A stretch of DNA of 64,000 bases from Escherichia coli (GCF_017348835.2 NZ_CP071375.1), one strand, 5' to 3'. Shown: positions 9,339 through 49,517, counted from the first letter of the stretch. A program made the numbers and translations. The notes: generated from the sequence alone by a model not told the origin.

Positions 9339-11892
9339 ACCGGTAGGCGATCTGGTCGTTGATTTAAGTCTGGATGCGGCCAGATTTGACGAGCAGATGG
9401 CCAGAGTCAGGCGTCATTTTTCCGGTACGGAAAGTGATGCGAAAAAAACAGCGGCAGTCGTTGAACAGTCGCTGAGCCGACAGGCGCTGGCTGCACAGAA
9501 AGCGGGGATTTCCGTCGGGCAGTATAAAGCCGCCATGCGTATGCTGCCTGCACAGTTCACCGACGTGGCCACGCAGCTTGCAGGCGGGCAAAGTCCGTGG
9601 CTGATCCTGCTGCAACAGGGGGGGCAGGTGAAGGACTCCTTCGGCGGGATGATCCCCATGTTCAGGGGGCTTGCCGGTGCGATCACCCTGCCGATGGTGG
9701 GGGCCACCTCGCTGGCGGTGGCGACCGGTGCGCTGGCGTATGCCTGGTATCAGGGCAACTCAACCCTGTCCGATTTCAACAAAACGCTGGTCCTTTCCGG
9801 CAATCAGGCGGGACTGACGGCAGATCGTATGCTGGTCCTGTCCAGAGCCGGGCAGGCGGCAGGGCTGACGTTTAACCAGACCAGCGAGTCACTCAGCGCA
9901 CTGGTTAAGGCGGGGGTAAGCGGTGAGGCTCAGATTGCGTCCATCAGCCAGAGTGTGGCGCGTTTCTCCTCTGCATCCGGCGTGGAGGTGGACAAGGTCG
10001 CTGAAGCCTTCGGGAAGCTGACCACAGACCCGACGTCGGGGCTGACGGCGATGGCACGCCAGTTCCATAACGTGACGGCGGAGCAGATTGCGTATGTTGC
10101 TCAGTTGCAGCGTTCCGGCGATGAAGCCGGGGCATTGCAGGCGGCGAACGAGGCCGCAACGAAAGGGTTTGATGACCAGACCCGCCGCCTGAAAGAGAAC
10201 ATGGGCACGCTGGAGACCTGGGCAGACAGGACTGCGCGGGCCTTCAAATCCATGTGGGATGCGGTGCTGGATATTGGTCGTCCTGATACCGCGCAGGAGA
10301 TGCTGATTAAGGCAGAGGCTGCGTTTAAGAAAGCAGACGACATCTGGAATCTGCGCAAGGATGATTATTTTGTTAACGATGAAGCGCGGGCGCGTTACTG
10401 GGATGATCGTGAAAAGGCCCGTCTTGCGCTTGAAGCCGCCCGAAAGAAGGCTGAGCAGCAGACTCAACAGGACAAAAATGCGCAGCAGCAGAGCGATACC
10501 GAAGCGTCACGGCTGAAATATACCGAAGAGGCGCAGAAGGCTTACAAACGGCTGCAGACGCCGCTGGAGAAATATACCGCCCGTCAGGAAGAACTGAACA
10601 AGGCACTGAAAGACGGGAAAATCCTGCAGGCGGATTACAACACGCTGATGGCGGCGGCGAAAAAGGATTATGAAGCGACGCTGAAAAAGCCGAAACAGTC
10701 CGGCGTGAAGGTGTCTGCGGGCGATCGTCAGGAAGACAGTGCTCATGCTGCCCTGCTGACGCTTCAGGCAGAACTCCGGACGCTGGAGAAGCATGCCGGA
10801 GCGAATGAGAAAATCAGCCAGCAGCGCCGGGATTTGTGGAAGGCAGAAAGTCAGTTCGCGGTACTGGAGGAGGCGGCACAACGTCGCCAGCTGTCCGCAC
10901 AGGAGAAATCCCTGCTGGCGCATAAAGATGAGACGCTGGAGTACAAACGCCAGCTGGCTGCACTTGGCGACAAGGTTACGTATCAGGAGCGCCTGAACGC
11001 GCTGGCGCAGCAGGCGGATAAATTCGCACAGCAGCAACGGGCAAAACGGGCCGCCATTGATGCGAAAAGCCGGGGGCTGACTGACCGGCAGGCAGAACGG
11101 GAAGCCACGGAACAGCGCCTGAAGGAACAGTATGGCGATAATCCGCTGGCGCTGAATAACGTCATGTCAGAGCAGAAAAAGACCTGGGCGGCTGAAGACC
11201 AGCTTCGCGGGAGCTGGATGGCAGGCCTGAAGTCCGGCTGGAGTGAGTGGGAAGAGAGCGCCACGGACAGTATGTCGCAGGTAAAAAGTGCAGCCACGCA
11301 GACCTTTGATGGTATTGCACAGAATATGGCAGCGATGCTGACCGGCAGTGAGCAGAACTGGCGCAGCTTCACCCGTTCCGTGCTGTCCATGATGACAGAA
11401 ATTCTGCTTAAGCAGGCAATGGTGGGGATTGTCGGGAGTATCGGCAGCGCCATTGGCGGGGCTGTTGGTGGCGGCGCATCCGCGTCAGGCGGTACAGCCA
11501 TTCAGGCCGCTGCGGCGAAATTCCATTTTGCAACCGGAGGATTTACGGGAACCGGCGGCAAATATGAGCCAGCGGGGATTGTTCACCGTGGTGAATTTGT
11601 CTTCACGAAGGAGGCAACCAGCCGGATTGGCGTGGGGAATCTCTACCGGCTGATGCGCGGCTATGCCACCGGTGGTTATGTCGGTACACCGGGCAGTCTG
11701 GCTGACAGCCGGTCGCAGGCGTCCGGGACGTTTGAGCAGAATAACCATGTGGTGATTAACAACGACGGCACGAACGGGCAGATAGGTCCGGCTGCTCTGA
11801 AGGCGGTGTATGACATGGCCCGCAAGGGTGCCCGTGATGAAATTCAGACACAGATGCGTGATGGTGGCCTGTTCTCCGGAGGTGGACGATGA
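9331..11892 (+). CDS. H: Tail tape measure protein H
   Basis: 853 aa, long coiled-coil-like middle and Gly-rich C-terminal part, lambda gpH length. Confidence 0.93.
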   Translation: MAEPVGDLVVDLSLDAARFDEQMARVRRHFSGTESDAKKTAAVVEQSLSRQALAAQKAGISVGQYKAAMRMLPAQFTDVATQLAGGQSPWLILLQQGGQVKDSFGGMIPMFRGLAGAITLPMVGATSLAVATGALAYAWYQGNSTLSDFNKTLVLSGNQAGLTADRMLVLSRAGQAAGLTFNQTSESLSALVKAGVSGEAQIASISQSVARFSSASGVEVDKVAEAFGKLTTDPTSGLTAMARQFHNVTAEQIAYVAQLQRSGDEAGALQAANEAATKGFDDQTRRLKENMGTLETWADRTARAFKSMWDAVLDIGRPDTAQEMLIKAEAAFKKADDIWNLRKDDYFVNDEARARYWDDREKARLALEAARKKAEQQTQQDKNAQQQSDTEASRLKYTEEAQKAYKRLQTPLEKYTARQEELNKALKDGKILQADYNTLMAAAKKDYEATLKKPKQSGVKVSAGDRQEDSAHAALLTLQAELRTLEKHAGANEKISQQRRDLWKAESQFAVLEEAAQRRQLSAQEKSLLAHKDETLEYKRQLAALGDKVTYQERLNALAQQADKFAQQQRAKRAAIDAKSRGLTDRQAEREATEQRLKEQYGDNPLALNNVMSEQKKTWAAEDQLRGSWMAGLKSGWSEWEESATDSMSQVKSAATQTFDGIAQNMAAMLTGSEQNWRSFTRSVLSMMTEILLKQAMVGIVGSIGSAIGGAVGGGASASGGTAIQAAAAKFHFATGGFTGTGGKYEPAGIVHRGEFVFTKEATSRIGVGNLYRLMRGYATGGYVGTPGSLADSRSQASGTFEQNNHVVINNDGTNGQIGPAALKAVYDMARKGARDEIQTQMRDGGLFSGGGR

Positions 11893-21402: not shown

Positions 21403-21986
21403 TGGCATTCAGAATGAGTGAACAAGCACGGACCATAAAAATTTATAATCTGCTGGCCGGAACTAATGAATTTATTGGTGAAGGTGATGCATATATTCCG
21501 CCTCATACAGGTCTGCCAGCAAACAGTACCGATATTGCACCACCAGATATTCCTGCTGGCTTTGTGGCTGTTTTCAACAGTGATGAGGCATCGTGGCATC
21601 TCGTTGAAGACCATCTGGGTAAAACGGTTTATGACGTAGCGTCAGGGGACGAGTTATTTATTTCTGAACTCGGTCCGTTACCGGAAAATGTTACCTGGTT
21701 ATCGCCGGAAGGGGAGTTTCAGAAGTGGAACGGCACAGCCTGGGTGAAAGATGCAGAAGCAGAAAAACTGTTCCGGATCCGAGAGGCGGAAGAAATAAAA
21801 AACAGCCTGATGCAGGTAGCCAGTGAGCATATTGCGCCACTTCAGGATGCTGTAGATCTGGAAATCGCAACGGAGGAAGAAACCTCATTGTTGGAAGCCT
21901 GGAAAAAGTATCGGGTGTTGCTGAACCGTGTTGATACATCAACTGCACCTGATATTGAGTGGCCTACGAATCCTGTCAGGGAGTAA
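21402..21986 (+). CDS. tfa: Tail fibre assembly chaperone
   Basis: 194 aa beginning [17 protein letters not shown]; start overlaps the stf stop (TAATG). Confidence 0.9.
21821..21941 (+). repeat. Direct repeat copy A (3' part of tfa)
   Basis: ~88 percent identical to 22870-22990, including a 40-nt identical core. Confidence 0.8.
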
Positions 21987-34885: not shown

Positions 34886-36328
34886 TTAAGCGGGTAATGT
34901 GATAACAAACCTTGTCCCCCGCGCATTTGACGTAACCGCAACCGTGCCTTTATGCGCGACAACAATTGATTTCACTATCGCCAGCCCAATGCCGCTACCT
35001 TCGCCTTTTCGCTGGCGGGAGGGGTCAACGCGGTAGAAACGGTCAAACAATCGCGGTAAGTGTTCGGGCGCAATGGGCGTACCGGGGTTTTCGACGATAA
35101 CTTGCACCTGATGCTCGACCGTCTGGCAGCGCACTACAATAGCCTCACTGGGTGGCGTATAACGTAGGGCATTAGAAAGCAGGTTGCTTAACGCCCGACG
35201 CAGCATCAGCGGATCGCCCGCAACCTGACATTCGTCGCCAACAAATCGCAACTCCACGCCGCGATCTTCCGCTAACGCCTCGAAAAAATCGAACACTTTG
35301 CCGATTTCATCCGCCAGGTTGAGCATTTTCTTTTCGGGGATTAGCTGGTTGTTATCGGCCTGAGCGAGAAACAGCATATCGCTGACCATTTTCGCCATTC
35401 GCGTCAGCTCTTCGAGATTAGAGTAGAGCACATCTTCCAGTTCCTTCTGGCTGCGCGACTGGCTGAGGGCGATTTCCGTTTGCGTTATGAGATTAGTAAT
35501 TGGTGTGCGAATTTCGTGGGCGATATCCGCTGAGAAATTGGACTGGCGGGTAAAGACATCCTCAATACGCTCGATCATATGGTTGAACGACAGTACCAGC
35601 TGTTCCAGCTCAATGGGCACGGTCTGCGGGTCAAGGCGGACGTCGAGATCTTTCGAGGTGATATTCTGGATTTGACGGCTGACGCTGCGGATCGGCGCGT
35701 GACCTTTATGTACCGCCAACAGTACGATAAAGACGATTAGGATGCTGATTACCGATGCGGTCATAATAAGTTTATTCATCAAATCATTTATGTAATGAAG
35801 ATGAAAATCGATCGAAAGCGCGATGTAGAGCGTATAAATCGGTTTGCCGTCCACCAACGGGCCAACCGGCAAGTTAATCATCCGCCAGTTGCTGTGTTCC
35901 ATATGCCCGTGACCGTGGCCTGGCATCATCATCGTCGGGCCGGAAAGGAGATACACCTCGCCACCCTGAGCGTCTTTATCGGGTATGGCGTCACGCGTAA
36001 ACTCGCGGATATCCGGCGCACCGGGGGAGTGATACACCGTTTTACCCTGGCTATCTGCCAGGGAAATCAACACATTGGAATAACCACTGACGATATCTTC
36101 CAGCGTCATTAAGCGTCGGGCTTGCATTTCGTCAGGGTGATTTAGTACCCGTTCAAGGGTGGCGCTAATCTCTTTTAAATCATTAATATCCTGCTCGGCA
36201 AAATGCACTTTTACTGAGTGGATCATGATCCATGCAAAGGCGAAAAACGCCGCGATGGTGGCCAGGCTGATAAAAAAGGTCAGGCGGGTTGCCAGCGAAA
36301 ACGGGCGCTGAAATGGCTTACTGACCAT
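34886..36328 (-). CDS. cusS: Copper/silver sensor histidine kinase CusS
   Basis: 480 aa from [11 protein letters not shown]-box [10 protein letters not shown]. Confidence 0.95.
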
Positions 36329-37001
36329 CCGGCACCTCAAGCATGTAACCCACGCCGCGCACGGTTTGAATCAGCTTCGGCTCAAAGTCGTTGTCGATTT
36401 TGCCGCGTAGCCGCTTCACCGCCACATCAATGGCGTTAGTGTCGCTGTCGAAATTCATGTCCCATACCTGCGAGGCGATAAGCGAGCGGGGCAGCACTTC
36501 GCCCTGATGGCGAAGGAAAAACTCCAGCAGAGTAAATTCTTTACTGGTCAGAGTGATGCGCGTGCCGCTGCGGGTGACTTTGCGGCTGACGAGATCGACC
36601 ATCAGATCGGCAACCTGAAACTGACTTTCGATAATCACCGCCGCCCCGCGCCGCAGGAGAGTGCGCACCCGCGCCAGCAGTTCAGCAAAAGCGAATGGTT
36701 TCACCAGGTAGTCATCTGCCCCCAACTCCAGCCCCTTGACGCGATGTTCAATGGTGCCAAGCGCGGTAAGCAACAGAATCGGCATCCCTTTATTGGCGGA
36801 GCGCAACATGCGCACGATATCCCAGCCGTTCACGTCCGGCAGCATAATATCGAGGATTATCAGATCATAATCACCGGTCATCGCCAGATGGTAGCCATTC
36901 AGCCCGTTGTCGGCCAAATCGACCACAAAACCGGCTTCGGTTAACCCTTTGGTCAAGTATTCTCCGGTTTTCTTTTCATCTTCGACAATCAACAGTTTCA
37001 T
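36318..37001 (-). CDS. cusR: Response regulator CusR (OmpR family)
   Basis: 227 aa beginning [16 protein letters not shown]. Confidence 0.95.
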
Positions 37002-37066
37002 ATTTCCTCCGCATGTTGCCCGGGCAATTCTAGAGTAGCGGGATCAGATGGCAATCGCTTATTGGC

Positions 37067-37088
37067 AAAATGACAATTTTGTCATTTT
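37067..37088. promoter_or_regulatory. CusR box palindrome in the cusR-cusC divergent promoter
   Basis: aaaatgacaattttgtcatttt, a perfect inverted repeat. Confidence 0.8.
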
Positions 37089-37157
37089 CCTGTCACCGGA
37101 AAATCAGAGCCTGGCGAGTAAAGTTGGTGGTATAAAATCACCAGAAATTATCAGCCT

Positions 37158-38540
37158 ATGTCTCCTTGTAAACTTCTGCCATTTTGTGTGGCCCTTGCGC
37201 TAACCGGTTGTTCACTGGCACCGGATTATCAGCGCCCGGCAATGCCCGTGCCGCAGCAGTTCTCACTCAGCCAGAACGGCCTCGTTAACGCAGCAGATAA
37301 CTACCAGAACGCGGGCTGGCGCACCTTTTTTGTTGATAATCAGGTGAAGACGCTGATTAGCGAGGCGCTGGTGAATAACCGGGATTTGCGCATGGCGACG
37401 CTGAAAGTGCAGGAAGCGCGGGCGCAATATCGTCTGACCGATGCTGACCGCTACCCACAGCTCAATGGCGAGGGCAGCGGCAGCTGGAGCGGCAATCTTA
37501 AAGGCGATTCAGCCACGACGCGGGAGTTTTCTACTGGCCTTAACGCCAGCTTTGACCTCGATTTTTTCGGGCGCTTAAAGAACATGAGCGAAGCCGAGCG
37601 ACAAAATTATTTAGCCACTGAGGAAGCTCAGCGCGCGGTGCATATTCTGCTGGTTTCTAATGTCGCGCAAAGCTATTTCAATCAGCAGCTGGCGTATGCG
37701 CAATTGCAAATAGCCGAAGAAACGCTGCGTAATTATCAGCAGTCATATGCGTTTGTCGAAAAACAACTGTTGACAGGTAGCAGTAATGTTCTGGCGCTGG
37801 AACAGGCTCGCGGGGTGATTGAAAGTACCCGCAGCGACATCGCTAAACGTCAGGGGGAACTGGCGCAGGCGAATAATGCATTGCAACTGTTATTGGGAAG
37901 CTACGGCAAGCTGCCGCAAGCGCAGACAGTAAACGGCGGCAGTCTGCAAAGCGTTAAATTACCGGCGGGCTTGTCGTCGCAAATCTTATTGCAGCGCCCG
38001 GATATTATGGAAGCTGAACATGCGTTAATGGCGGCTAATGCCAATATTGGTGCTGCACGCGCGGCATTTTTCCCGTCTATCAGCCTGACCAGCGGAATAT
38101 CAACCGCCAGCAGCGATCTGTCGTCATTATTTAACGCCAGCAGCGGGATGTGGAATTTTATACCCAAAATTGAGATCCCCATTTTTAATGCCGGACGTAA
38201 CCAGGCCAATCTGGATATCGCCGAAATTCGCCAGCAGCAGTCGGTGGTGAATTATGAACAGAAAATCCAGAACGCCTTTAAAGAAGTGGCAGATGCGCTG
38301 GCATTACGTCAAAGCCTGAACGATCAAATTAGCGCCCAGCAGCGTTATCTGGCATCGCTGCAAATTACTTTGCAACGGGCGCGGGCATTATATCAGCACG
38401 GCGCAGTAAGTTATCTGGAAGTGCTGGATGCCGAGCGTTCTTTATTTGCAACCCGACAAACTTTACTTGACCTGAATTATGCCCGTCAGGTTAACGAAAT
38501 TTCTTTATATACCGCACTTGGTGGCGGTTGGCAGCAATAA
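37158..38540 (+). CDS. cusC: Outer membrane factor lipoprotein CusC
   Basis: 460-aa ORF with lipobox LTGCSL. Confidence 0.95.
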   Translation: MSPCKLLPFCVALALTGCSLAPDYQRPAMPVPQQFSLSQNGLVNAADNYQNAGWRTFFVDNQVKTLISEALVNNRDLRMATLKVQEARAQYRLTDADRYPQLNGEGSGSWSGNLKGDSATTREFSTGLNASFDLDFFGRLKNMSEAERQNYLATEEAQRAVHILLVSNVAQSYFNQQLAYAQLQIAEETLRNYQQSYAFVEKQLLTGSSNVLALEQARGVIESTRSDIAKRQGELAQANNALQLLLGSYGKLPQAQTVNGGSLQSVKLPAGLSSQILLQRPDIMEAEHALMAANANIGAARAAFFPSISLTSGISTASSDLSSLFNASSGMWNFIPKIEIPIFNAGRNQANLDIAEIRQQQSVVNYEQKIQNAFKEVADALALRQSLNDQISAQQRYLASLQITLQRARALYQHGAVSYLEVLDAERSLFATRQTLLDLNYARQVNEISLYTALGGGWQQ

Positions 38541-38563
38541 CTTTTAACTCCAGGAGAGAATAA

Positions 38564-38896
38564 ATGAAAAAAGCACTGCAAGTCGCAATGTTCAGTCTGT
38601 TTACCGTTATTGGCTTTAATGCCCAGGCTAACGAACATCATCATGAAACCATGAGCGAAGCACAACCACAGGTTATTAGCGCCACTGGCGTGGTAAAAGG
38701 TGTTGATCTGGAAAGCAAAAAAATCACCATCCATCACGATCCGATTGCTGCCGTCAACTGGCCGGAGATGACCATGCGCTTTACCATCACCCCGCAGACG
38801 AAAATGAGTGAAATTAAAACCGGCGACAAAGTGGCGTTTAATTTTGTCCAGCAGGGCAACCTTTCTTTATTACAGGATATTAAAGTCAGCCAGTAA
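38564..38896 (+). CDS. cusF: Periplasmic copper chaperone CusF
   Basis: 110 aa with signal peptide. Confidence 0.95.
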   Translation: MKKALQVAMFSLFTVIGFNAQANEHHHETMSEAQPQVISATGVVKGVDLESKKITIHHDPIAAVNWPEMTMRFTITPQTKMSEIKTGDKVAFNFVQQGNLSLLQDIKVSQ

Positions 38897-38911
38897 CCCA
38901 GGTTTAATGAG

Positions 38912-40135
38912 ATGAAAAAAATCGCGCTTATTATCGGCAGCATGATCGCGGGCGGTATTATTTCTGCGGCAGGTTTTACCTGGTTTGCAAAGGCTGAACC
39001 ACCCGCAGAAAAAACATCGACCGCAGAACGTAAAATCTTATTCTGGTACGACCCTATGTATCCCAATACGCGGTTCGATAAACCAGGTAAATCGCCGTTT
39101 ATGGATATGGATCTGGTGCCGAAATATGCCGATGAAGAGAGTTCTGCGTCTGGTGTGCGCATTGACCCGACTCAGACGCAGAATCTGGGGGTGAAAACGG
39201 CTACCGTCACGCGCGGACCGCTGACTTTTGCCCAGAGTTTCCCGGCGAATGTCAGTTACAACGAGTATCAGTATGCCATTGTGCAGGCTCGCGCTGCCGG
39301 GTTTATCGACAAGGTGTATCCGCTTACCGTGGGCGATAAAGTACAAAAGGGCACACCGCTTCTCGACCTGACCATTCCTGACTGGGTGGAAGCGCAGAGT
39401 GAGTATTTACTGCTGCGCGAAACCGGCGGTACGGCGACCCAGACTGAAGGCATTCTTGAGCGGCTGCGACTGGCGGGAATGCCGGAGGCGGATATTCGCC
39501 GCCTGATCGCCACGCAAAAAATCCAGACTCGCTTTACGCTCAAAGCACCCATTGATGGCGTGATCACCGCGTTTGATCTGCGCGCGGGAATGAATATCGC
39601 CAAAGATAACGTGGTAGCGAAAATTCAGGGTATGGACCCGGTGTGGGTCACTGCTGCGATCCCGGAGTCTATCGCCTGGCTGGTGAAAGATGCCTCGCAG
39701 TTTACGCTCACCGTTCCGGCACGACCGGATAAAACACTCACCATCCGCAAATGGACGCTGCTACCCGGCGTGGATGCCGCGACCCGCACGCTGCAGCTGC
39801 GTCTGGAAGTCGACAACGCCGACGAGGCGCTAAAACCGGGCATGAACGCCTGGTTGCAACTCAATACCGCCAGCGAACCGATGCTGCTCATTCCGTCACA
39901 AGCGCTGATTGATACCGGCAGCGAACAGCGGGTGATTACCGTTGATGCCGACGGGCGCTTTGTACCGAAACGCGTTGCCGTTTTCCAGGCATCGCAAGGT
40001 GTCACCGCATTACGCTCTGGTCTGGCGGAAGGTGAAAAGGTGGTTTCCAGCGGCCTGTTCCTGATTGATTCCGAAGCCAATATTTCTGGCGCACTGGAGC
40101 GGATGCGCTCTGAAAGTGCTACCCATGCGCATTGA
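38912..40135 (+). CDS. cusB: Membrane fusion protein CusB
   Basis: 407 aa. Confidence 0.95.
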   Translation: MKKIALIIGSMIAGGIISAAGFTWFAKAEPPAEKTSTAERKILFWYDPMYPNTRFDKPGKSPFMDMDLVPKYADEESSASGVRIDPTQTQNLGVKTATVTRGPLTFAQSFPANVSYNEYQYAIVQARAAGFIDKVYPLTVGDKVQKGTPLLDLTIPDWVEAQSEYLLLRETGGTATQTEGILERLRLAGMPEADIRRLIATQKIQTRFTLKAPIDGVITAFDLRAGMNIAKDNVVAKIQGMDPVWVTAAIPESIAWLVKDASQFTLTVPARPDKTLTIRKWTLLPGVDAATRTLQLRLEVDNADEALKPGMNAWLQLNTASEPMLLIPSQALIDTGSEQRVITVDADGRFVPKRVAVFQASQGVTALRSGLAEGEKVVSSGLFLIDSEANISGALERMRSESATHAH

Positions 40136-40146
40136 GGGAATAACCA

Positions 40147-43100
40147 ATGATTGAATGGATTATTCGTCGCTCGGTGGCGAACCGTTTTCTGGTGCTGATG
40201 GGCGCGTTATTTCTGAGTATCTGGGGCACCTGGACCATCATTAACACGCCAGTGGATGCGTTGCCGGATCTCTCCGATGTGCAGGTGATTATTAAAACCA
40301 GCTATCCCGGTCAGGCACCGCAAATCGTTGAAAATCAGGTGACTTATCCGCTAACCACCACCATGTTGTCGGTGCCTGGCGCGAAGACTGTGCGTGGTTT
40401 CTCGCAGTTTGGCGACTCTTATGTGTATGTCATTTTCGAAGATGGCACCGATCCGTACTGGGCGCGCTCGCGGGTGCTGGAGTACCTCAACCAGGTACAG
40501 GGTAAGCTGCCTGCGGGAGTCAGCGCCGAGCTGGGGCCAGATGCCACGGGTGTTGGCTGGATCTATGAATATGCACTGGTGGATCGCAGCGGTAAGCACG
40601 ATCTTGCCGATTTACGCTCATTGCAGGACTGGTTTCTCAAATATGAGCTAAAAACCATCCCTGACGTTGCGGAAGTGGCGTCGGTGGGCGGTGTGGTGAA
40701 AGAGTATCAGGTGGTTATCGATCCTCAGCGCCTGGCGCAGTATGGCATCAGTCTCGGCGAAGTGAAAAATGCGCTGGATGCTTCAAACCAGGAAGCGGGC
40801 GGTTCGTCGATCGAACTGGCGGAAGCGGAATATATGGTGCGCGCCAGCGGCTATCTGCAAACGCTCGACGACTTTAATCACATCGTTTTAAAAGCCAGTG
40901 AAAATGGCGTGCCCGTTTATCTGCGTGATGTTGCGAAGGTCCAGGTTGGCCCGGAGATGCGCCGGGGCATTGCCGAACTGAACGGCGAAGGCGAAGTGGC
41001 AGGTGGGGTGGTGATCCTGCGCTCCGGCAAAAACGCCCGAGAAGTGATCGCCGCCGTGAAGGACAAACTGGAAACGCTGAAAAGTAGTCTGCCGGAAGGC
41101 GTGGAGATAGTTACAACATACGATCGCAGCCAGCTCATTGACCGCGCCATCGACAACCTCAGCGGCAAGTTGCTGGAAGAGTTTATTGTGGTGGCGGTAG
41201 TCTGTGCGCTGTTTCTCTGGCATGTGCGCTCGGCGCTGGTGGCGATTATTTCGTTGCCGCTGGGGTTGTGTATTGCTTTTATTGTCATGCACTTTCAGGG
41301 ACTGAACGCCAATATTATGTCGCTGGGCGGCATTGCGATTGCCGTCGGGGCGATGGTCGATGCCGCTATCGTCATGATCGAGAATGCGCATAAACGGCTG
41401 GAAGAGTGGCAGCACCAGCATCCTGACGCCACGCTGGATAATAAAACGCGCTGGCAGGTGATCACCGATGCGTCTGTTGAAGTGGGTCCGGCGTTGTTTA
41501 TCAGTCTGCTGATTATCACGTTGTCGTTTATCCCGATCTTCACCCTGGAAGGGCAGGAAGGGCGTCTGTTTGGCCCGCTGGCGTTCACTAAAACCTATGC
41601 GATGGCGGGCGCGGCGCTGCTGGCGATCGTAGTGATCCCGATCCTGATGGGCTACTGGATCCGTGGCAAAATTCCGCCGGAAAGCAGTAACCCGCTCAAT
41701 CGCTTTTTGATTCGTGTTTATCATCCGCTATTGCTGAAAGTACTGCACTGGCCGAAAACCACGCTGTTGGTGGCCGCGCTTTCGGTGCTGACGGTTCTCT
41801 GGCCGCTCAATAAAGTTGGCGGGGAATTTTTACCGCAGATCAATGAAGGCGACTTGTTGTATATGCCATCGACGCTGCCGGGGATTTCCGCAGCAGAGGC
41901 GGCGAGTATGCTGCAAAAAACCGACAAGCTAATTATGAGCGTACCTGAAGTGGCGCGGGTATTTGGCAAAACCGGGAAAGCGGAAACCGCCACCGATTCT
42001 GCTCCGCTGGAGATGGTAGAAACGACCATCCAGCTTAAGCCGCAGGAGCAGTGGCGGCCAGGCATGACGATGGACAAAATCATTGAGGAACTGGATAACA
42101 CCGTGCGTCTGCCGGGGCTGGCGAATCTGTGGGTGCCGCCAATTCGTAACCGTATCGATATGCTCTCGACCGGCATTAAAAGCCCCATCGGCATTAAAGT
42201 TTCCGGCACTGTGCTGGCGGATATCGACGCGATGGCGGAGCAAATTGAAGAGGTGGCACGAACGGTGCCAGGCGTGGCTTCTGCTCTAGCCGAGCGTCTG
42301 GAAGGTGGGCGCTATATCAACGTTGAGATTAACCGTGAAAAAGCCGCGCGTTACGGTATGACGGTGGCAGATGTGCAGTTGTTTGTGACTTCTGCTGTGG
42401 GCGGGGCGATGGTTGGCGAAACGGTGGAAGGAATTGCCCGTTATCCAATTAATCTGCGTTATCCGCAAAGCTGGCGCGATAGTCCGCAGGCACTGCGCCA
42501 GCTGCCGATTCTGACGCCGATGAAGCAGCAAATCACCCTGGCAGACGTGGCCGACGTTAAAGTCTCTACCGGACCGTCGATGCTGAAAACCGAGAATGCG
42601 CGCCCGACGAGCTGGATTTATATCGATGCCCGCGATCGTGACATGGTGTCGGTGGTTCACGATTTGCAAAAAGCGATAGCTGAAAAAGTGCAGTTAAAAC
42701 CGGGCACCAGCGTGGCATTCTCCGGGCAGTTCGAGCTACTGGAGCGCGCCAACCATAAGCTGAAACTCATGGTGCCGATGACACTGATGATCATCTTCGT
42801 GCTGTTGTATCTGGCATTCCGTCGGGTGGGCGAAGCGTTGCTGATTATCAGCAGCGTACCGTTTGCGCTGGTGGGCGGCATCTGGTTGCTGTGGTGGATG
42901 GGCTTTCATCTTTCTGTGGCGACGGGCACTGGCTTTATTGCCCTTGCCGGGGTTGCTGCCGAATTTGGCGTGGTGATGCTGATGTATTTACGTCACGCCA
43001 TAGAGGCCGAGCCGTCGTTGAATAATCCGCAAACATTCAGCGAGCAGAAGCTGGATGAGGCGTTGTATCACGGCGCGGTTCTGCGCGTGCGCCCGAAAGC

Positions 43101-43290
43101 GATGACGGTGGCGGTGATTATCGCCGGTTTGCTGCCGATTCTGTGGGGAACGGGGGCTGGTTCAGAGGTGATGAGCCGGATTGCCGCGCCGATGATTGGC
43201 GGCATGATCACCGCGCCTTTGCTGTCGCTGTTTATTATCCCGGCGGCGTATAAGCTGATGTGGCTGCACCGACATCGGGTACGGAAATAA
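40147..43290 (+). CDS. cusA: RND copper/silver efflux pump CusA
   Basis: 1047 aa, 12-TM RND architecture. Confidence 0.95.
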
Positions 43291-44799: not shown

Positions 44800-44833
44800 C
44801 CGCTCTCATCCATTCGATGAGAGCGGTTTTTTT
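44800..44833. terminator. Bidirectional rho-independent terminator between pheP and ybdG
   Basis: ccgctctcatc-cattc-gatgagagcgg followed by ttttttt. Confidence 0.7.
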
Positions 44834-48812: not shown

Positions 48813-49243
48813 TTATGTTGGCGTTTTCTATTCAGTATAGAAGTGGGAGCGGCCAGGCGAGATGCGGAAGTTCTGGAATGTTTCTTTTTTTGGTGATGGT
48901 GACTGAAGCAATTTGGCTACTTTTGCAATGTGACAAGTTATGGCACGGCTGGCTGGTGGCGAAGAATTTTGATGATTGGGGCGCGCAGAATAAAACTGGC
49001 TCAGCTTCAGTTGATCAAATGAGGAGTGAGAAGTCCGAAACAAGACTCACTGTATAAATAAACAGCTATTTTATTGAGGAAGGGTAAGATAACGGCGGGT
49101 GCCTGAAGCTTTCCGGTTTCAGGTTAACTCTGAGGTCTGGAAAGATGAAGCCCCAGGAGATATTTCTATCAACCCTGGGGCTACCTACCCAAACCTGAAC
49201 AATTTGGATGGTAGTCCCTTCTTCGCATGGAGGCAATATAAAC

Positions 49244-49396
49244 ATGCTGACGAAATATGCCCTTGTGGCAGTCATAGTGCTGTGTTTGACAGTGCTGGGA
49301 TTTACGCTTCTGGTCGGAGACTCGTTGTGTGAGTTTACGGTGAAGGAACGTAATATTGAGTTCAGGGCTGTTCTCGCTTACGAACCGAAGAAGTAG
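49244..49396 (+). CDS. hokE: Type I toxin HokE (Hok/Gef family)
   Basis: 50 aa [50 protein letters not shown]; the track ORF has an in-frame upstream extension from 49208. Confidence 0.88.
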
Positions 49397-49517
49397 CCGT
49401 TGTGCGGGGAGCAATCCCCGCATATCCGGTTGTCAGGTCAGAGTGGTAAGGCACCTGCTTTACACTTTCGCCCGCAGTCAGTGATGGCTGCGGGCGAATC
49501 GTACCAGATGTTGTCAA

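Follow-up and report, generated by a model that had tools for sequence, protein, structure and literature searches.

An intact chromosomal cusRS/cusCFBA locus of Escherichia coli and a possible third half-site beside its CusR box

In Escherichia coli K-12, the copper/silver efflux system Cus is encoded by two divergent operons, cusRS and cusCFBA (b0570-b0575), and the locus, its divergent arrangement and the CusR box between the operons have been in the literature since 2000-2005. The E. coli CusR box consensus is AAAATGACAAnnTTGTCATTTT (as quoted in PMC11195947), and both cus operons are described as CusR-activated (PMC10920338). In the K-12 cus spacer, whose box is identical to the one described here, binding of CusR and HprR was found by genomic systematic evolution of ligands by exponential enrichment (gSELEX; PMC8249747), and a single CusR peak by chromatin immunoprecipitation (ChIP) on microarrays (bioRxiv 10.1101/2020.08.17.251918). 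Comparable systems are the plasmid-borne sil determinants, the pco genes, and hprRS with its divergent hiuH-msrPQ operon. Here we analyzed a stretch of 64,000 nucleotides of an E. coli genome (GCF_017348835.2 NZ_CP071375.1; the whole stretch is referred to as the window), in which an initial annotation had reported divergent cusRS and cusCFBA operons with a perfect CusR-box palindrome. This locus is almost certainly the ordinary, intact chromosomal cusRS/cusCFBA copper/silver efflux determinant of E. coli. All three elements of the original observation (the cus locus, the divergent operons and the CusR box) are known already and nothing in it is new; the sole thread with some research value is an operator that may extend beyond the published box.

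All six gene products score above the curated NCBIfam cut-offs of Cus-specific models. On the minus strand are cusS (34886-36328), encoding a Cu(I)/Ag(I) sensor histidine kinase of 480 amino acids (aa; NF007345, 979.7 bits vs. a cut-off of 423; annotated as cusS in E. coli PE164), and cusR (36318-37001), encoding an OmpR/PhoB-family response regulator of 227 aa (NF007346 equivalog, 507.9 bits vs. 420). On the plus strand are cusC (37158-38540; outer-membrane channel lipoprotein, 460 aa, lipobox Cys18; NF007347, 906.1 bits vs. 598), cusF (38564-38896; periplasmic Cu(I)/Ag(I) metallochaperone, 110 aa; NF007348, 206 bits vs. 143), cusB (38912-40135; periplasmic adaptor, 407 aa; NF007303, 862.7 bits vs. 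390), and cusA (40147-43290; inner-membrane pump of the resistance-nodulation-division family, 1047 aa; TIGR00914, 1667 bits vs. 701). The locus is thus as complete as had been claimed, with the proviso that the range given for it, 36318-43290, runs from cusR to cusA but begins at the cusR stop codon and so leaves out cusS, although the title of that annotation named cusRS.

All six frames are open and full-length, with zero internal stops or frameshifts, and the products have K-12 lengths except for three additional residues in CusC. CusR is 100% identical to its K-12 counterpart and the other five proteins are 98-99.8% identical (identical columns, stop codon counted: CusR 228/228, CusS 472/481, CusC 454/458, CusF 110/111, CusB 407/408, CusA 1043/1048); CusF differs by the single substitution I47V and CusA by five substitutions. 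We checked residues that are essential for catalysis or metal binding according to published structures and mutagenesis, and every one is present: D51 in CusR; H271 and the periplasmic H42, F43, H176, M133, M135, and H145 in CusS; the three-methionine site (M573, M623, M672) and the proton-relay residues D405, E939, and K984 in CusA; M49, M64, and M66 in CusB; the lipobox cysteine C18 in CusC; and in CusF the metal-site motif H-x7-W-x2-M-x-M starting at residue 58. The junctions are tight and consistent with two operons: cusS begins (ATG, 36328) 11 nt before cusR ends, and the pump genes are separated by gaps of 23 nt (cusC-cusF), 15 nt (cusF-cusB), and 11 nt (cusB-cusA). A mechanical list of open reading frames (ORFs) has cusS start at a TTG at 36340, but the 480-aa protein corresponds to the annotated ATG at 36328. 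Judged from these features, the locus is probably functional.

The nine CusS substitutions relative to K-12 are unevenly placed, with five clustered in residues 393-407 of the ATP-binding domain (T393P, G394S, T396A, D405E, L407Q), and another, T68M, adding a methionine to the periplasmic sensor domain.

The ORF map, the RefSeq annotation of PE164 and the K-12 annotation agree on the two divergent operons, and gene names, order, strands, and coordinates in the window match both references. In PE164 the order is ybcH, nfrA, nfrB, cusS, cusR, then divergently cusC, cusF, cusB, cusA, followed by pheP, ybdG, and nfsB; K-12 has the same order, with the cus genes between nfrB and pheP in both. The window therefore has the layout of the E. 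coli chromosomal cus determinant, cusS-cusR diverging from cusC-cusF-cusB-cusA between nfrB and pheP. The statement that the locus lies directly downstream of the nfr operon holds in plus-strand coordinates only: since nfrB (32499-34736) is on the minus strand, cusRS is transcriptionally upstream of nfrBA, and 149 bp separate it from the nfrB start. Overall, the locus serves as a positive control, in which the first annotation was correct to the nucleotide.

Two pig isolates of E. coli, PE164 and F2_81, have chromosomes that match the 8.4 kb from 34886 to 43290 at 100% identity. The cus locus was matched in 5,404 of 5,426 complete E. coli genomes, in 5,331 of them over at least 80% of its length, and most of the 5,404 matches have at least 95% identity over the locus. 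Identity of at least 99% over the locus was found in only two of the 5,426 genomes, the next best being 98.6%. The flanks behave in the same way: PE164 and F2_81 are again 100% identical, and the genomes after them reach 99.1-99.3%. We therefore rejected the idea that this cus allele is unusually divergent or imported: because the flanks are similarly rare, the strain represents a sparsely sampled lineage and not a locus-specific anomaly.

Between the two operons, at 37067-37088, the window contains aaaatgacaattttgtcatttt exactly where a 22-bp motif had been placed, with zero mismatches to the published CusR box. This box, to which no strand is assigned, consists of a left arm AAAATGACAA (37067-37076) and a right arm TTGTCATTTT (37079-37088), each 10 nt long and 100% complementary to the other according to a repeat finder, with TT between them. 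Since the central TT is not self-complementary, the box is a perfect hyphenated inverted repeat, and the description as a perfect palindrome stands for the arms but not for the full 22 bp. The start codons, both ATG, are at 37001 for cusR (minus strand) and at 37158 for cusC (plus strand), which gives a spacer of 156 bp (37002-37157); the box is central in it, as had been stated, with 65 nt between it and cusR and 69 nt between it and cusC. With up to three mismatches permitted, AAAATGACAANNTTGTCATTTT matches a single time in the 64 kb (0.01 matches expected), making the box the sole such site in the window. The box is invariant in eight sampled E. coli spacers. A search of the full-text literature for the box sequence as a string returned only unrelated papers. 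From its identity with the K-12 operator, phosphorylated CusR would be expected to bind at 37067-37088 in this strain.

Aligning the spacer to the silR-silC spacers of two plasmids with about 70% identity in coding DNA revealed a clear conservation footprint: the box arms, CTGTCACC directly 3' of the box, CAGAG, GTAAAGT, and on the minus strand TAGAAT with TTGnnA 16 nt before it. The minus-strand elements belong to a putative sigma-70 promoter of cusRS (37027-37054, minus strand; -35 TTGCCA at 37054-37049, 16-nt spacer, -10 TAGAAT at 37032-37027), which was the only promoter-like match in a scan of the spacer and agrees with the consensus at 10 of 12 positions. Both hexamers, TAGAAT and TTGnnA, keep their register in silR promoters whose remaining sequence is only about 70% identical, and the region is invariant in the eight E. 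coli spacers. The putative -10 of the cusCFBA promoter was placed at TAAAGT (37119-37124, plus strand) because GTAAAGT (37118-37124) is conserved in related promoters, among them those of silC, and because polymorphism among the eight E. coli spacers, concentrated downstream of GTAAAGT, begins just past it. Transcription of cusC may thus start near 37131, which would put the center of the CusR box at about -53.5.

The conserved CTGTCACC contributes a third half-site, TGTCA at 37091-37095, which is in direct orientation to the TGTCA of the right box arm (37080-37084) with an 11-bp period, as are the half-sites of a Pho box. Right arm and third half-site together form the direct repeat TGTCATTTTCCTGTCACC (37080-37097, plus strand). 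This is the equivalent of a PhoB site in K-12, TGTCATTTTTCTGTCACC (K-12 coordinate 595521), mapped by ChIP followed by sequencing (ChIP-seq), from which it differs at one linker position (17/18 positions identical). In K-12, cusC RNA was 208 in the wild type and 50 in a phoB deletion, with the PhoB ChIP-seq site at 595521 (PMC10294691); since the K-12 version of the repeat is this mapped site, the direct repeat at cusC is published already.

The third half-site is conserved at silC, pcoE, hiuH, an Acinetobacter plasmid promoter, and the Ralstonia copA promoter. A common layout, consisting of an inverted repeat, 5 nt, (T/A)GT(C/A)A(C/G), 22 nt, and a -10 hexamer, was found at cusC, silC, pcoE, K-12 hiuH (TTGTAATGCTGCTGTAAG, 22 nt, TATCCT), the Acinetobacter plasmid promoter, and Ralstonia copA; at pcoA, it is the proximal inverted-repeat arm that stands 22 nt from the -10. 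We also considered the third half-site as a -35 element and rejected this for both strands, because the spacing does not fit: the plus-strand -10 is 22 nt away, and the minus strand offers no -10. The shared layout suggests that the operator is larger than the published 22-bp box.

Two further observations concern the DNA between the third half-site and the putative cusC -10. The pentamer CAGAG (37105-37109) is kept at cusC, silC, pcoE, and Citrobacter cusC, and is not found in more distant loci. In E. coli O19:H7 730V1, the cusC promoter is interrupted by an IS903B element (1610-2722 of the retrieved stretch), which directly follows CAGAGC and separates the CusR box from the -10; the annotation gives cusC as partial, and pump expression has apparently been knocked out naturally.

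To put the layout in a wider context, genomes were scanned with an alignment of seven family regulators as query, one genome per species; the 80 loci considered are a sample of the scan matches, and the following counts hold among the matches listed. The inverted repeat T[GT]ACA-N4-TGT[CA]A, a search pattern that came from the cus and hiuH boxes, was present within 450 nt upstream of the regulator gene in 25 of the 80 loci. In 7 of these 25, a perfect extra half-site occurs at effector-side offset 11, and in 11 it does so with at most one mismatch; over the other offsets from 5 to 30 on that side, perfect matches numbered two at offset 22, one each at 25, 26, and 28, and zero elsewhere. On the regulator side, offset 11 was occupied in two of the 25 loci. 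A -10-like hexamer follows 22 nt past the half-site in most of the 25; the cusC TAAAGT is in register with the TATAAT of pcoE and with the TAnnnT or CAnnnT hexamers at these loci. The effector-side genes are copper-related and encode an outer-membrane efflux protein, a CusF-like protein, cupredoxins, and a multicopper oxidase. Three plasmid loci were uninformative: in Caballeronia the regulator gene follows cusA in the same direction, in Paraburkholderia there is no box, and in Hydrogenophaga there is a box but no plus-strand effector gene, and the third position reads TGACA instead of TGTCA.

We tentatively propose, while giving it somewhat less than an even chance, that the CusR box is two-thirds of a tripartite operator with half-sites arranged as inverted, direct, direct. 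Its third half-site, ending near -35 and about 22 nt short of the -10, would form a direct repeat with the promoter-proximal arm, and this head-to-tail pair would engage and drive the effector promoter, leaving the distal inverted arm for another role, such as cooperativity or the divergent regulator promoter; PhoB activation of cusC would be a by-product of the common direct repeat. Solved complexes of OmpR/PhoB-family regulators show them bound head to tail on direct repeats, which agrees with such a pair. The recurrence of the layout from cusC to Ralstonia copA, the 22-nt position of the proximal pcoA arm, the excess of offset-11 half-sites on the effector side over the regulator side among the matches listed, and the copper-related effector genes all favor the proposal. 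Against it, about half of the surveyed loci lack the third half-site or have it in degenerate form, the search pattern was derived from the cus and hiuH boxes, and the cusC repeat is explained already as a PhoB site. Footprint or binding-stoichiometry data were not found in the literature covered, which did not extend to the CusR and HprR footprint papers, and the PDB contains no structure of a CusR-type regulator on DNA, the nearest entries being the PcoR DNA-binding domain and family members that bind direct repeats. If the proposal is true, a third half-site by the -35 position would bring the odd "palindromic" sites into line with the direct repeats typically bound by the OmpR/PhoB family, account for the regulation of cusC by CusR, HprR, and PhoB alike, and allow better regulon prediction for copper-responsive two-component systems.

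Alternatively, the third half-site may serve PhoB only, with a Pho box overlapping the CusR box such that phosphate starvation co-induces copper efflux, while CusR uses the palindrome alone. We regard this as possible, though less likely than not. The K-12 PhoB ChIP-seq peak coincides with the site, cusC expression is four-fold lower in the phoB deletion, and the PhoB study reports the site to be conserved in other species (PMC10294691). The cusC site also resembles the direct repeat of a Pho box. Its position is a different matter, as canonical pho promoters have the Pho box about 10 bp upstream of the -10, where it replaces the -35, and at cusC 22 nt separate TGTCAC (ending at 37096) from the putative -10 at 37119. 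Further, hiuH has the same extra half-site, yet is unmentioned in the PhoB study (PMC10294691), and the half-site occurs at many copper promoters of the CopR/CusR type in Beta- and Gammaproteobacteria.

At the level of the whole locus, a sil-type silver-resistance determinant gained by horizontal transfer, or a decayed copy, is scarcely credible in place of native, functional cus. Cus-like DNA does occur on plasmids (112 places; 2,981 plasmid records at 60-80% identity), but this reading is refuted by synteny and identity: the locus is in its native chromosomal position between nfrB and pheP, CusR is identical to K-12 CusR and only 87% identical to SilR, silE, silP, and pco genes are absent from the flanks, and the cus frames contain no stops or frameshifts. 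That the inverted repeat is a chance palindrome, an RNA hairpin or a terminator can likewise be dismissed as next to impossible, since its arms are conserved across cus, sil, and pcoE while the 2-nt internal spacer changes and the surrounding DNA diverges, the box matches a published operator exactly and binding to that operator is published, the box is A+T-rich and upstream of both promoters, a scan found no terminator-like site at the box, and the window has two perfect inverted repeats with 10-nt arms and a loop of at most 6 nt (the other at 44801) vs. 0.7 in simulations, but only about 0.002 would be expected in a 156-bp spacer.

Some points do weigh against the view of an ordinary, functional cus locus. 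The start sites are placed by conservation alone, and a simple terminator scan found no terminator after cusA or after cusS. No obvious Shine-Dalgarno sequence precedes cusC, and at 37152, 6 nt from the ATG, a G-to-C change (ATGAGCC to ATCAGCC) abolishes the sole GAG of the weak ribosome-binding region; this change was found in this allele alone among the eight aligned E. coli spacers. Translation of cusC might therefore differ slightly from that in K-12. Taken as a whole, the sequence itself yields nothing contrary to the canonical cus explanation.

The mechanism that follows takes its steps from the K-12 literature; gene identity, intactness, the operator with its conservation, and a promoter layout in register with relatives were observed in the window. 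CusS would sense periplasmic Cu(I)/Ag(I), autophosphorylate at H271, and pass the phosphate to D51 of CusR. CusR~P would then bind the inverted repeat at mid-spacer (37067-37088), from where it would activate the rightward cusCFBA promoter (predicted -10 TAAAGT at 37119-37124, box center at about -53.5) and also boost the leftward cusRS promoter (TTGCCA, 16 nt, TAGAAT). CusA, CusB, and CusC would assemble into a proton-driven tripartite pump, supplied by CusF, that expels Cu(I)/Ag(I) across the outer membrane. HprR would probably use the same operator, as would PhoB by way of the direct repeat at 37080-37097. For this strain, we infer the transcription start sites, CusR binding, and copper induction.

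Elsewhere in the window, positions 1 to about 23070 hold the late region of a lambdoid prophage, from terminase through tail fibers, next to ompT/envY, which is the position of the cryptic prophage DLP12 in K-12; an Rfam match to IS009 is at 21745-21943. The envY gene (26392-28466) is split by an IS3-family element at about 26726-27939, in which Rfam detects a frameshift pseudoknot (ALIL, 27007-27123), and the single mismatch to PE164 over the first 34.9 kb, at 27738, falls within this element. Downstream of the cus genes, the only other perfect 10-nt inverted repeat of the window, CGCTCTCATC-CATTC-GATGAGAGCG (44801-44825), is just past the pheP stop between the convergent pheP and ybdG, and is probably a terminator hairpin. 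A hokE/sok toxin-antitoxin locus is at 49097-49420 (Rfam sok, 49097-49252); PE164 has a 1,336-bp IS421 (IS4-like) element right after it, which the window lacks; PE164 is therefore not the source of the window. Within the cus locus, a scan at Rfam gathering thresholds found no RNA family.

Compared with the described systems, the locus is closest to K-12 cusRS/cusCFBA, with which it shares the six genes, their order, strands, and neighbors, the 156-bp spacer, and an identical 22-bp box. The two differ in minor ways only, with 97.4-98.9% DNA identity and four spacer substitutions, at 37089, 37128, 37131, and 37152, none of them in the box. K-12 CusC ends after 457 aa at a TGA where the window has TGG, so that CusC here is longer at its C-terminus. 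Between cusC and cusF, K-12 contains a repeat of about 134 bp in place of the 23-bp gap of the window (38541-38563); we take this insert to be of the enterobacterial repetitive intergenic consensus (ERIC) type, because it contains the ERIC1R and ERIC2 primer sequences. It is at 10975-11131 of the retrieved K-12 stretch, and most of the top E. coli matches equal the window in total length.

The plasmid sil determinant (silRS/silCFBA, e.g., on IncHI2) likewise has divergent regulator and pump operons, and matches the locus in register in both box arms (AAAATGACAA and TTGTCATT), in CTGTCACC as third half-site, and in the two -10 elements, GTAAAGT for the pump operon and TAGAAT for the regulator. 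It differs in being plasmid-borne and only about 70% identical in DNA (SilR and CusR share 87% protein identity), with a 189-bp spacer, CA instead of TT within the box, an additional silP and a DUF411 gene, and pco adjacent to it. At pcoE, which is reported to be controlled by CusR (PMC11195947), the arrangement GTGACAAAATTGTCAT, 5 nt, AGTCAC, 22 nt, TATAAT has the same register as cusC. At pcoA, in contrast, the box ATTACAnnnnTGTAAT is one helical turn nearer the -10, its proximal arm being 22 nt from TAGATT, and lacks an extra half-site; the pco products are an oxidase and chaperones and not a pump.

The hprRS/hiuH-msrPQ locus also pairs a two-component system with a divergent effector operon, and its box CATTACAAAATTGTAATG is bound by both HprR and CusR. 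The tripartite layout is kept at hiuH, with TGTAAG as third half-site and TATCCT 22 nt further on, but the half-sites read TGTAA instead of TGTCA, the system responds to peroxide or hypochlorite, and HprR is 51% identical to CusR. Finally, TGTCATTTTCCTGTCACC resembles a Pho box in its two TGTCA half-sites with an 11-bp period, and in K-12 its counterpart has been mapped as a PhoB site activating cusC; it differs from a Pho box in being about 22 nt, and not the canonical 10 nt or so, from the putative -10, and in that its upstream half-site is common to the CusR palindrome.

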